From assembly GCA_044892525.1 (NCBI GenBank), contig CM097885.1, positions 150,412,001 to 150,476,000 on the forward strand: a DNA stretch of 64,000 nt, in the 5' to 3' direction. The stretch's first letter is position 1; every line of letters begins with the position of its first letter. Under the pieces are notes generated by a model. That model was not told where the DNA came from and did no database searches. It saw only the letters and a list, made by a program, of their open reading frames with translations. Both the position numbers and the translations under genes were made by a program. Origin of the DNA: Schmidtea polychroa. Taxonomy: Eukaryota. Positions 25,935-34,200 of this stretch are shown one piece after another.

Positions 25935-28042
25935 ATAACACATATGAGGTTGGAAGAGACAAATGCATTAACAATGGCAGAAACATTGGGAAAACCGTTA
26001 AAAAGGAAAAGCAAAATTAATAAACCAACAAAAGGCAGTTTGAGTACTCCAAGCCCGAACAAGGCACTAAGTAGATCCAATGAAACTGAAGAAGTGGAAG
26101 AGATTATCCTAGAAGATAGTGACGAGGAGCCAGGAGAAAGATCGCCGCTATTAGTGAGATGGCCGACAGGAGCCGAAATGTGGACTACCAACCAACCATC
26201 AACGAGTTATCAACAACCGACAAAACTAAATATCGAAGAAATCATCGACAATACTACGGAAACCGAAACGGATGAACAATTCAAGAAGCAAAGAGAACCA
26301 ACAAGAATAACACCAGAAGGTCAAACTGATAAAATAATAGAGGAATGGAATGAATGGCTGAGAAATAATGACAGCTCATTACCCAGAACGGATAACGAAA
26401 GAAATCCGCACTACGAAAATACCAGAGAAGCCGGAACGATGATGGAAAAACGGGCGAAAGGAAGACCCAGGAAACAAGGAGAAAAACCTGAGTTCAAAAC
26501 CAAGGAACAATTAAAGCAAGAACGAGGGCAAGCTCGATTGGAAAAGTTAGATAAAATAGTATGGGATCTAAAGGAAGCCCAACCAACAATCGAAAGAGGA
26601 GAAAAATGGATACGAGAATTGATCAAAGATATGTTAATAATAACAAACCCACAACTTAGACGCTTATGGCAACGAAAAGTAGCCAGTGTAGAAGCTAGAC
26701 AATTATGGCACATCGTATCAGGGATAATCCCAAAGTTAATCAAAGAGAAAACGAAAACCACTAAAACGGACTGGGATGAAACAAAGAGAGTGATTGAGCA
26801 GCTCACAATGAATGCAAACGATGACGAGCATCATCTAGTAGTAATCACTTATTTGATGTATAATTTGATGGGACTAGCTGCGAGAAAAATACCAAACAAA
26901 CAATTCGCAAACCACGTAGAAACGACAGTGGCAATCATAGAAAACACTATTGAACCACATATTATTCGTGCCGGAGGATGGAAGAGACTTATACAAGCGC
27001 CACGAAAAAATGAGCAAGAAAGGTCAATGCAAGTTAGACTGAAAAAGCTGTTGAATGAGCTGGAATGGGAGTTACCGATGAAGGACCCAGCCAGCAGAAA
27101 AGCGTCAATAAATTCGCTAATGATGACCATGATGATATGGATGTTGTGCACAAGTGGAGCAACGGGTTTCACCATCTATGATTGCGATAATATGGTAATG
27201 AGAGATAAATATTCATTGAGAGATATAGAAGAATGCAGACAAGCATCACCCAACAAATTAGACATCGTAAAAACAAAAATCACCTATCATGTATACCAAG
27301 AATCAGATTTCATCAGAACGCAAGCAAGAGAATGCGTAGTATCAAAAAAGGTACTCGCGTATTATTGTGGACAATATTCATATTCAACTCTCATACTACC
27401 CGGATTAGATAAAGAAATCGTACCAATACAAAGAGAGGACTGTAAAGAGCTTTTTAGAACCGGAGCGATGAAAATGCATAACGGAGTGACAATACATGGG
27501 CAAACCGGAATGATTAAAACCGAAAGTGTTTATGTATCCGGGAAAGTAAAATCATCGGATGGATCATGCAACGGAGGTACGTATACAATCCGAGGAGAGG
27601 TGATATCAGGAGTAGTAGTGATCGAGTCCTATACGGTTGAATTAAAAGAATACGAAGCGCAATTTGACGCAAATAATTACCAAATGAAGACCAACCCAGC
27701 ATGTAGAGCTACGGAAAATGTATGCAAGACGGGAGTATCAACCATAATATATGAAGCTAACACTCAAAAATGCCGACTCCAGCTGCTAAAAAGTGCTTTG
27801 TTTAATGAAGTAAAGGGAGAAATTTATGAGAACGAAGATGACGAGGATGGAAATGGAAAAGTACGGATGAGAAATGGAAAACCAATGCCACCATCGCCCA
27901 GAGAGAAGAGACTCTCGACACAAAAAACACCAACGGCACTAATCACAGACGATCCAGACCTAGGCATGAGATTTATCAAGGAGAAGGAAACCACCAAATG
28001 CGATAGTATAGTATCCAAGACTAACTACGCAGGCATCTACAT
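25935..28042 (+). CDS. Polyprotein segment 2: AT-hook, Bcl-2-like domain, signal peptide, N-terminal half of chuvirus-type glycoprotein
   Basis: KGRPRK (26457-26474); IEPHIIRAGGWKRL BH2-like motif; MMTMMIWMLCTSGATG|FTIYDC; C...YYCGQYS; REKR furin-like site at 27900-27911. In frame with segment 1. Confidence 0.85.
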
Positions 28043-31214: not shown

Positions 31215-34200
31215 ATCTACATGTCGAGGCAGATAATAGATAGAGCCGTGGGAAAGATAGCCACGGAGGACGTCAAATTATATTTATACGCCAATAATAA
31301 AATGGATTTCCTATTTCATCGCGGACAAACGACATTGCAAAAAGTATATTACGATCTTATACAAAACGATTGTTCACTGAATAAAGAGATACTGAAAACA
31401 AAACTAGCCATCGCGATAACACACCCAGATAATACGATACCATCACTACCATTACCAGATGGACACTTTGGTAGAATGGTGGGAGAAGTAATGTACACCT
31501 ATCAGTGCACAAAAACGTATGCACGAATGCCAGAAAAACCCACAAAACCAGCAGGGAAATGTGCAAATGAATTGGAAATTCGTTATAAAGGACAGAATCG
31601 ATTCGTCCAACCAGTCACCAGAATTATGAACCCAGTAGGCTTCTACCCGAATCTGTTCAACTGTTCTAATGCGTACGGACCATTGTATGAGAGACCAGAT
31701 GGGAAATGGATAATGTTACCGGTAAAGTCCCTAACAGAGGAACCCAAGAAGTTTGGATTAATAGAACTCGCTACGGAGCAAGATTTCAAACCAATAGACG
31801 TGTCAAACGGTGGTATGTATTCGCCAGAGGACTTGGAAACAGCACGGCTTAACGTACTATTTCCAGCAAGGCGAGAATCTATATTGTCGAATATGGTAAC
31901 AATAACTGGGGGAACAAACTATCAATCAGGTCCCAATTACGAGCTACTATTATCACCAGACCATTTTCAACAGGCGACATCAAACATGATGAAGGCCATG
32001 TGGGGGAGATTCTTAGTTTTTGGACAAATGATGGCCGGAATATTGGGGATCATACTCATAATTCAGATTTTCAGAGTAATACTAACACAAATGTTAGCCT
32101 GTTTTGATATCTACAAGAGAGAAAAGAAAGTAAATTGGAAAATGATAGTAGGATTTCTACCATTCTTAGCTAAAACTATGGTGTTACATGGTCACTCAAA
32201 GGACATTCATCGAATAAAACGATTGATTAAAATACTAACGAAGATTAAAGGAACCGACGAAGAAGTAGGCAGACGATTCCGGAAAGTAATGTACGATGAA
32301 GCAACAAGGAGACAACTGAAAAAGAACAAGCCAAAATTCTTAGACCGATTTAGAAGTCAATCATCTAACAGCGATAGTGACGACGATGATAACGGGAACG
32401 ATAAATGTCTATATCCAAGCAGAAACCCAAATGAAAAACCAATGGAAACAGCACCGTACTGGGAAAAGGAAAAGACAAACACCTGGATCGCCAACGGAAG
32501 CTATATACCACCGGATATCGTAGGACAACAAGCAGCTTTGACCATGACACCAAATATGTATCCGCAATTACCGAGTCAACCCGGGATGCATTATATGCCA
32601 ACACGACGCACCAAAAGTGTAGATCAAGCGGATGACGTACGAACAATAGCAGCAATGAACTTACCCGGAGGTCCAGCAGTGACAGTCATGATTCAAATCA
32701 ATGGTAAAGAGACAAATGCTATGATAGACACCGGAGCTAATGTATCAGCCATAGCAATCAATCAAATTCCCAGTAAATACTGGAAAGATATCGAATCCAC
32801 AACAATCCACATCATAGCATGTAGTAAAGAAACAGTAGACGTGGTCGGAAGATGGTGGACCACATTGAGATACCAAGATAACGAAATTGAAACATATCTA
32901 GCAGTAATACCAAAACTGAGTGTACCATGCATAATTGGAACAGATTTAATGCCAGAACTACTAAAAGAAGTGGTAATTGACTTAACAACCATGTGTCTAA
33001 AAGACAGAACCGGCAGAATATGCAAAATGAATGCAATAATCCGATGTCCAGAGAAAATTATAGTACCAGCCAAGTCACAAATGATATGTCAAATAAAAGT
33101 AGATACGGGTATGGAAGGGGAAGTTATTTTCGAGCCCAGCAAATCATTCGAGAAGCGACGAGAGCTACCACTAGCAAGAGAAATAATAACGATAAACCAA
33201 GAAGGAGTGATACCGATCAACATCACGAATTTCGAAGAGGAAGATAAAATCATCTACGAAAATGAAAAATTGGGAAAGTTAACTCCAATGATGGATATCG
33301 AATTACCAAAAATGACCAATGAGATGACCAAAGACGACGAATTATGGACAATAGATAGCACGTTGCTAACGGATGCCGAAAAGAGAAAATTACACCGATT
33401 ATTAGTGGAATACAAGGATATATTCGCCATCTCAGATTTGGATTTGGGTACATGTGATGTTACCCTACACGCAATACCATTAATAGATGAAACCCCAATC
33501 GCGCTAAGACCATACAAACTAGCAGAAATGCAAAAGGAAATAGCTGAAGCAGAAGTACAAAAAATGCTAGATGCAAAAGTAATCGAACCAAGTTGCTCAC
33601 CCTGGCAGTTTCCAGTGGTCATGGTAAAAAAGAAAGACGGTACGCAAAGATTTTGTATCGATTATCGAAAACTAAACGCAGTGACGAAAAGGGATACCTA
33701 CCCATTGCCAGACATTAATGAGATGCTACTCATGTTGCAGGGAGCAGCATATTTTACTTCTTTAGATTTAAAAAGTGGATACTGGCAGATTAAAGTCAAA
33801 GAAGAGGACAAAGAGAAAACAGCTTTCACGCTGGGACGAGATCTATATCAGTTCAGAAAAATGCCATTCAGATTGACCAACGCACCAGCATCATTTCAAA
33901 GGTGCATGAACTTTGTCACTCACGGGATCAAGCAATGTATGGTATATATTGATGACTTACTAATTTATTCAGCGACATTTGAACAACATCTGGAGGATAT
34001 CCGAAATGTATTTATTCGATTGAGACAGTGGAAACTCAAACTCAAACCTTCAAAATGCGATTGGGCAAAGGAAAAAGTCACGTTTTTGGGACACATAGTG
34101 TCAGCTAAAGGAAAAGAACCAGATCCAAGAAACATCGAAAAAATAAAAACATGTCCAGCACCAAAAACCGTAACGCAAGTGCAAGAATTCTTAGGACTAT

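Follow-up and report, generated by a model that had tools for sequence, protein, structure and literature searches.

A probable Burro-type giant Gypsy retrotransposon in Schmidtea polychroa with a chuvirus-related Env upstream of protease

Introduction

The giant planarian element Burro (GYPSM1) was reported in 2019 to carry an env in frame between BCL2 and protease (PR), and this env gave mononegavirus glycoprotein matches (PMC6431247). Six planarian GAG-ENV-POL elements, Smed_errantivirus_1 to Smed_errantivirus_6, have been described with an HSV/gB-type Env whose furin site is not always conserved (PMC13524379). BURRO1 goes up when smedwi-2 is knocked down by RNAi (PMC8532177). Our literature search turned up no newer Burro study and no nematode env-pol paper apart from the work cited here.

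Here we analyse a window of 64,000 nt from Schmidtea polychroa (GCA_044892525.1, contig CM097885.1, positions 150,412,001-150,476,000, forward strand). We consider it probable, at roughly 0.8 for all parts jointly, that positions 18121-48263 hold the decayed remains of a giant Ty3/Gypsy LTR retrotransposon of Burro type, that its family encodes Gag to tail in one frame, and that the product is a polyprotein threaded through the endoplasmic reticulum (ER). Burro and the window family have in common a length of ~30 kb, a single ORF (4,600-5,100 aa) in which Gag is followed by ubiquitin-like, BCL2-like, Env, PR-RT-RH-IN and ankyrin segments, and the presence of MATH/TRAF; the three CCHC Gag knuckles are as in S. 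mediterranea Burro (PMC6431247). MATH/TRAF occupies a separate downstream ORF in the window family, whereas it lies inside ORF1 in Burro1 and in an upstream ORF in the D. tigrina element (PMC6431247). The window ORFs scanned gave no BIR match, only a RING ORF, and PMC6431247, in its section on these elements, does not claim BIR for every Burro. Between PR and RT no dUTPase-like domain matched Pfam at E<=1, a spacer of fitting size being present. The family probably belongs with Burro, an assignment set by layout and by by-eye comparison with published Env segments.

The Smed_errantivirus elements have the same order and the same Env type as the window family (PMC13524379). By eye, the near counterparts of two sister families in the S. 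polychroa genome, L122 and L126, are Smed_2 and Smed_1; the window family comes closest to Smed_5 (26/42 and 19/20 residues in two stretches compared by eye) while being identical to none of the six listed segments. In the main text of PMC13524379 the strings 'polyprotein', 'in frame' and 'splic' give 0 matches, and its passages on these elements take up neither a one-chain product nor the topology of such a product.

Results

One reading frame from Gag to tail

The window copy comprises the following features.

18121..20522, + strand: 5' LTR remnant, first ~1.5 kb missing; 2,401 bp, 99.5% identical to 45862-48262
20530..20547, + strand: primer-binding site 8 nt past the LTR end, putatively of tRNA-Pro type; two other copies carry this site behind their 5' LTR
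20848..21354, + strand: upstream accessory ORF with C-terminal C3HC4 RING (PF13920, E 5.4e-10)
21934..22377, + strand: 74-bp tandem repeat in the leader
22393..23628, + strand: Gag body with three CCHC knuckles (PF03732 Retrotrans_gag, E 6e-11; PF00098, E 7e-11); private frame break near 23602-23609
23580..25934, + strand: 'X' region, weakly ubiquitin-like (sub-threshold Pfam); ends at a private stop
26769..26990, + strand: Bcl-2-like domain (PF00452 sub-threshold, E 0.087) with BH2-type GGW motif at 26973
27117..27167, + strand: predicted internal Env signal sequence (hydropathy, KD15 peak 1.49)
27168..28042, + strand: Env ectodomain, N-terminal part (PF24664)
31215..31997, + strand: Env ectodomain, C-terminal part, starting with the second copy of a target-site duplication (TSD) (PF24664, E 2.4e-41)
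32028..32084, + strand: predicted Env transmembrane (TM) helix (KD19 2.46)
32130-32186, + strand: weaker hydrophobic helix past the Env TM (KD19 1.31)
32685..32960, + strand: aspartic protease, DTG at 32727 (PF00077, E 2.7e-10)
33624..35516, + strand: RT, RNase H and integrase (PF00078, PF17917, PF17919, PF17921, PF00665)
36435..39350, + strand: ankyrin repeats and polyprotein tail (PF12796); private stop 37089-91, family stop 39348-50
39908..41278, + strand: accessory TRAF-like ORF (RING, MATH; PF21355, E 1.1e-22)
41482..44127, + strand: three more accessory ORFs of 363, 244 and 222 codons; no family match, open in most copies
44350..48263, + strand: 3' LTR, ~3.9 kb; limits from four other copies (TG...CA, 4-bp TSD in three)
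46968-47723: 251-codon ORF within the 3' LTR

The element falls in the ~30 kb class, with an LTR of ~3.9 kb and ~22 kb of internal sequence once the insert and the leader loss are allowed for. For Burro the corresponding figures are ~25 kb of internal sequence, ~30 kb in total and an ORF1 of ~4,900-5,100 aa. The full LTR start was set from four other copies; within the window, nothing upstream matches 44301-45861. In these four copies the LTR pairs are 98.9-100% identical, so the family transposed recently. An ORF of similar size occupies the RING position in 11 of 12 upstream loci, and most downstream loci have a longer open frame at the TRAF-like position. The ubiquitin-like match reaches E 1e-4 (PF00240) in a sister family and the Bcl-2-like match E 0.0093 and 3.5e-5 (PF00452) in sister families, both kinds of match lying below Pfam cut-offs. 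The backbone is Gypsy-type (Retrotrans_gag, sub-threshold Ty3_capsid, RT_RNaseH and Integrase_H2C2, in the order PR-RT-RH-IN), in contrast to the Pao backbone of the mosquito BEL/Pao Anakin elements (PMC7642597); Pao family domains gave no Pfam match in the window ORFs. No tRNA genes were found in the window.

Across copies, the family frame runs Gag-X-Bcl2-like-Env-PR-RT-RH-IN-Ank-tail through ~4,600 codons. All 4,617 codons are open in 1 of the 12 family copies traced end to end, and the 10-kb stretch from Gag to IN is free of stops in 2 of 39. The initial annotation placed Env upstream of PR in the Pol frame, and the frame from Env TM to PR is indeed continuous in most copies (27 of 35 alignable, the 8 breaks each falling at a different place). 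In the window copy, RVP, RVT_1, RT_RNaseH, Integrase_H2C2 and rve matches follow Env in the part of the frame beyond the insert. Its 2,655-aa ORF from ATG 25944 did not survive comparison: the two stop-free parts (25944-28040, 699 aa; 31221-37088, 1,956 aa) do sum to 2,655, and their outer limits are artefacts of stops private to the window copy. At 25932-34, where the window has a stop, 36/36 alignable copies have a sense codon, which rules out a separate start at ATG 25944, and that at 37089-91 is sense in 18/18, which with the former count rules out read-through at either position; the family stop at 39348-50 is present in 17/17. Nor are gag and X joined by a programmed -1 frameshift, since all 32 alignable copies carry an indel relative to the window at 23602-23609, making the break private to this copy. 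The window copy can no longer make the polyprotein: part of its 5' LTR and ~1.3 kb directly after the 74-bp repeat, including the gag start, are missing, and it has one frame break, two stops and an inserted transposon.

The frame extends beyond this family. Both sister families keep BH2-signal-Env-TM-PR in one frame at ~35% Env identity, and PR follows Env in one chain in 9 of 16 long database relatives (5 of them also with RT) and in P0001.

A single DNA frame could still be expressed from differently spliced RNAs, a gag-pol RNA without env and an env RNA alone, such that Pol would never follow a membrane anchor. Errantiviruses and retroviruses commonly make env from a spliced RNA, and splicing would resolve both the weak signal sequence and the one-to-one ratio of Gag, Env and Pol, which is unusual and counts against a single polyprotein. 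We nevertheless regard splicing as quite unlikely: it would not need an open frame over the Env-to-PR linker, yet three families and also database relatives keep this frame open, and the signal and TM are placed as the threading of a polyprotein would require. Contigs of three runs presumed, by guess, to be RNA and of one unlabelled run were aligned to one copy; among the 15 joints listed of 30, none from the presumed RNA runs skips env, and we draw no conclusion from this.

A young transposon interrupts env

28043..31214, - strand: DNA transposon with terminal inverted repeats inside env, 3.17 kb, 8-bp TSD
28490-30820: its 776-codon transposase-like ORF

The insert is flanked by an identical 8-bp duplication, its two copies at 28035-28042 and 31215-31222 spaced by 3,180 bp, and removing the insert plus one TSD rejoins the Env halves in the same frame, as first proposed. 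The site is empty in all 39 other family copies fetched. The left end of the transposon has 41 matches at 99-100% and begins at the equivalent of 28043 in 12/12 loci read; the insert is a young, multicopy element. Its transposase-like ORF gave no Pfam and no phage match; from its motifs and its TSD length we take the transposon to be hAT-like.

Env is related to chuvirus glycoproteins

The assignment of Env as chuvirus-type held up well. PF24664 (Monjiviricetes fusion) matches both halves (E 1.8e-26, profile 3-208; E 2.4e-41, profile 299-579) and Env with E 5.5e-72, and there are matches to named chuvirus G proteins, among them Tacheng tick virus 4 G (E 2.6e-37). The Chuviridae G proteins of this virus and of Yichun mivirus share with the window Env the PF24664 family, the cysteine pattern and a TM followed by a weaker hydrophobic helix. 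Unlike the window Env, they are stand-alone proteins of 650-700 aa with an N-terminal signal, are 23-28% identical to it and lie on a separate branch. All 14 ectodomain cysteines are at least 90% conserved among 98 sequences. PDB sequence searches found no fusogen for Env, and a word-index protein search returned nothing at near length and one protein at longer length.

A monomer model of Env from a natural uninterrupted copy has pLDDT 90.2 and a 48-residue central helix. Among the Foldseek matches listed, all are herpesvirus gB (best E 7e-14, TM-score 0.46, probability 1.00); the alignment to the predicted monomer is whole-length at 10-11% identity, with all TM-scores below 0.5. The predicted fold thus bears out the expected likeness to viral fusogens, and we class Env as a chuvirus-related, gB-type class III fusogen on the strength of the model. 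Burro Env, by comparison, was likened to gypsy F-type by HHpred (PMC6431247).

The furin-like REKR at 27900-27911 is present as annotated, in a loop within residues 221-250, where the model has low pLDDT. REKR occurs in 24 and KEKR in 4 of 28 pattern-matched copies (39 fetched); the site is absent from the two sister families, which rules out conserved furin cleavage. This absence, the single N-glycosylation sequon of the ectodomain and a literature in which we found no particle or fusion data would suit an Env that no longer forms infectious particles and instead acts within the cell as membrane anchor and assembly scaffold, or brings about fusion between adjacent cells. We think this rather unlikely, given that Env retains its full set of 14 cysteines and the complete predicted class III fold and that published gB-type Envs can also lack the furin site (PMC13524379).

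The initial annotation further proposed that the Gypsy lineage seen here had captured its chuvirus-type glycoprotein gene independently, which would make the capture a new one. Chuvirus glycoproteins are the nearest named relatives of Env, yet the layout is already published and the window family resembles Smed_errantivirus_5 (PMC6431247, PMC13524379), which leaves such a capture highly improbable. A quick tree, midpoint-rooted and built on 55 rows that were picked by similarity to the query and include two named viruses only, places a long branch (SH-aLRT 97-98) between the 16 polyprotein-type Envs and 38 of the 39 other glycoproteins; the remaining one, the long-branch P0137, falls at the drawn root. 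The window family Env is not nested among chuvirus glycoproteins in this tree, and its separate branch fits an old shared acquisition.

Predicted threading through the ER membrane

Signal and TM calls were made by hydropathy (KD15 and KD19 peaks). The signal peptide of the initial annotation stands as a hydrophobic stretch; it is internal, 392 residues past ATG 25944, and in the window family it is the weakest of the family set (KD15 1.49), unflagged at a 19-residue cut-off. A hydrophobic signal-like peak occupies this position in 13/13 polyproteins covering the region, and one strong TM (KD 1.8-2.6) is found in 15/15. Beyond the TM, the second helix reaches 1.27-1.71 in 11 of these 15; were it to cross the membrane, Pol would be lumenal, which counts against cytosolic Pol. 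This objection is tempered by its presence in 5/6 stand-alone G proteins and by scores below 1.2 in the other 4 polyproteins.

From these profiles, threading by one internal signal and one TM, with Pol left cytosolic as originally suggested, appears likely. Gag-X-Bcl2 would be made in the cytosol, and the hydrophobic stretch behind the Bcl-2-like domain would start ER translocation. Signal peptidase would cut that stretch, leaving the Bcl-2-like domain anchored by it, and the Env TM would stop transfer, placing Env in the lumen and Pol in the cytosol. The element's own protease would then release PR, RT and IN on the cytosolic face, with Gag, Env and Pol beginning one-to-one on the same membrane.

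A second predicted membrane module closes the polyprotein

38349..39209, + strand: second predicted membrane module (signal-like 38349-38405, ~250 residues, TM-like 39153-39209)

By hydropathy, this module is present in the window copy and in 8/8 long open tails of its family, and a second signal-plus-TM module, weakly FN3-like, closes the polyprotein in every lineage examined. The tail module gave no Pfam fn3 match, no PDB sequence match and no database homologue; the window tail gave no phmmer link to sister-family tails and no FN3 match in Atlas. The Burro section of PMC6431247 makes no mention of such a module.

Tentatively, Burro-type elements might make a flavivirus-style polyprotein with four ER crossings and two surface proteins, a gB-type fusogen before Pol and, after integrase, a second type-I FN3/Ig-like membrane protein as its attachment partner, with the Env signal doubling as the tail anchor of the Bcl-2-like protein. 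Our literature search found no LTR retrotransposon described as having such a two-glycoprotein entry kit.

Discussion

The env-before-protease layout has been known since 2019, and this family adds a member, not a new kind. The additions made here are modest: copy counts that document an unbroken frame across three families, a gB-type model of high confidence for a Burro Env whose first comparison was with F-type Env, a membrane topology that can be tested, and a tail module that recurs. If the topology is true, these elements, in contrast to retroviruses, would assemble with Gag, Env and Pol all derived from a single chain threaded through the ER, and they may pass between cells in a stem-cell-rich animal.

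A split env lies ahead of the protease in one polyprotein frame

The decayed retrotransposon, its insert and its terminal module are placed as follows.

18121-48263: LTR retrotransposon carrying env
28035-28042 and 31215-31222: 8-bp target duplication, 3,180 bp apart, of a 3,172-bp DNA transposon with terminal inverted repeats, in env
38349-39209: second signal-like and TM-like stretch, after integrase and the ankyrins, ending the frame

As the initial annotation proposed, the env halves rejoin across the insert: both lie in the same frame, stop-free over 699 and 1,956 codons, and PF24664 matches both in the correct order, the second half continuing into PR, RT, RNase H and integrase (Pfam). 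A 335-bp query adjoining the site yielded 290 candidates, 40 of them scored; all 39 copies fetched besides the window's lacked the insert, confirming an empty site in uninterrupted copies. With at least 40 near-identical copies of its left end across the genome, the inserted DNA transposon is young. The same transposon family is independently inserted in another copy of the retrotransposon (locus L015, 1488-4660, and L004), matching window 26960-26965.

From the Env TM to the protease, the predicted continuous frame is open in 27 of 35 alignable copies; the 8 breaks fall at 8 separate places, so no programmed stop or frameshift separates the two. The family frame ends at a stop at 39348-50 that is present in 17/17 copies, and one of 12 copies traced end to end retains an open frame of 4,617 codons. 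Searching the genome with PF24664 (2,580 candidates, 68 scored) uncovered two sister families, with ~35% Env identity, that keep BH2-type motif, signal, Env, TM and PR in one frame. Among database relatives, protease followed Env in one chain in 9 of the 16 longer matches scanned, with RT as well in 5. At the sister-family locus L125 (G000:C52), Env-PR is followed directly by the tail module, RT and IN being absent, and in several database relatives (P0001-P0004, P0015) Env precedes two or three protease domains.

Env ahead of PR is a real feature, but the layout ascribed at first to an independent capture is not new, since PMC6431247 already describes it for planarian Burro elements. Their ORF1 of 4,873-5,140 aa carries env between BCL2 and PR, this env matches mononegavirus fusion glycoproteins, and the paper presents it as the first case of an env set in frame between gag and pol. 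According to PMC13524379, Nematoda, Bryozoa and Platyhelminthes have GAG-ENV-POL elements of gB type, six of them from Schmidtea mediterranea; by eye, two of these six Smed_errantivirus elements closely match our sister families, and Smed_errantivirus_5 comes closest to the family in the window. Such matches point to a planarian host. PMC7642597 deals with the case of mosquito Pao elements, and loss of PIWI silencing raises BURRO1 RNA according to PMC8532177.

The window copy is dead

Over 2,401 bp the window's two LTRs share 99.5% identity. Judged from four other copies, a full LTR measures ~3.9 kb and has TG...CA ends; within these copies the paired LTRs match at 98.9-100%, and three of the four have 4-bp target duplications. 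The window copy lacks ~1.5 kb of 5' LTR and a ~1.3-kb leader including the gag start. Its stops at 25932 and 37089 are sense codons in 36/36 and 18/18 alignable copies, respectively (20 fetched for the latter), and an indel at 23602-23609 sets it apart from 32/32. Its apparent ORF limits are thus private lesions, and the 2655-aa ORF from ATG 25944 originally assigned does not hold. Two stops fit neutral decay, because ~1.5 are expected from LTR divergence at an assumed nonsense rate of 4.5%.

Each LTR also holds an ORF of ~250 codons (46968-47723; 19227-19982), open in most upstream loci, where these ORFs are only 66-84% alike and have no family match. A 604-bp inverted repeat pair, 98.7% identical, flanks the element (12229-12834 and 49251-49856), and a transposase-like fragment lies at 49565-49995. 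Outside the retrotransposon, 54050-54430 resembles, by eye, the C-terminal exon of a syntaxin-like gene, with a SNARE helix and a TM; this is likely a host gene.

Env has chuvirus relatives and a predicted class III fusogen-like fold

An AlphaFold2 model of Env (98-sequence alignment) reached pLDDT 90.2 with a 48-residue central helix. Every row listed by Foldseek was a herpesvirus gB (best E 7e-14, TM 0.46, 11% identity), supporting the suggested likeness to class III fusogens. All 14 Env cysteines are at least 90% conserved. The furin-like REKR, in the model's sole low-confidence loop, is common in the window's family (24 REKR and 4 KEKR of 28 matched), but neither sister family has it.

With a natural uninterrupted Env as query, a full HMMER search gave 1,059 proteins at E<=0.001. 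Among the stand-alone matches that carry a name are Tacheng tick virus 4 glycoprotein (E 2.6e-37, 27%) and a cluster of Chuviridae glycoproteins, in agreement with the chuvirus affinity noted initially; of 20 clusters looked up, 16 lacked a virus name or any other informative one. A long branch (SH-aLRT 97-98) in a 55-row quick tree separated 16 polyprotein-type Envs from both named viruses; the tree identifies no donor because its rows were picked for their similarity to the query and it was rooted at the midpoint. One relative, P0142, has immunoglobulin domains preceding the PF24664 glycoprotein in a single 1,000-aa chain.

A possible second membrane module ends the polyprotein

The terminal module occurs in 8/8 long open tails of the window's family, in both sister families (L123, L125) and in all three database polyproteins running far beyond integrase (P0002, P0006 and, most weakly, P0014), its two hydrophobic stretches 240-340 residues apart. 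The sister-family lumenal part scored 0.92 against the fn3 clusters of the Atlas, at low recognition, and a model of it (pLDDT 47) matched Ig/FN3 tandems (E 8e-5 to 1e-2, TM <=0.25), weakly suggesting an FN3/Ig-like fold. The Atlas search gave no such match for the window's own tail, and sequence comparison did not link it to the sister tails; the second membrane module is a lead only. A polyprotein with four membrane crossings and two surface proteins is conceivable, though doubtful.

Env is likely threaded through the ER

A signal-like hydropathy peak precedes the ectodomain in 13/13 polyproteins covering the region, and one strong TM follows it in 15/15. A weaker hydrophobic helix comes next in 11/15 polyproteins; it seems to descend from the viral protein, as 5/6 stand-alone glycoproteins have one too, and probably does not cross the membrane, because recent transposition requires cytosolic RT and IN. 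PMC13524379 describes two TMs flanking some ectodomains.

Hydropathy thus points to a likely ER-threading path. Gag-X-Bcl2 would form the cytosolic part, an internal signal after Bcl2 would open the route to the lumen, and the TM would act as stop-transfer behind a lumenal ectodomain, leaving PR-RT-IN-ankyrin cytosolic; signal peptidase and the element's own protease would make the cuts. Against this, the window family's signal-like stretch is the weakest by hydropathy among those examined, and spliced RNAs may operate instead of a single threaded polyprotein. The signal-like stretch lies 35-50 residues past the BH2-type motif in all three families (window 26769-27167 for motif and stretch together), which is Bcl-2 tail-anchor spacing. 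A single helix may serve as both Env signal and Bcl-2-like tail anchor.
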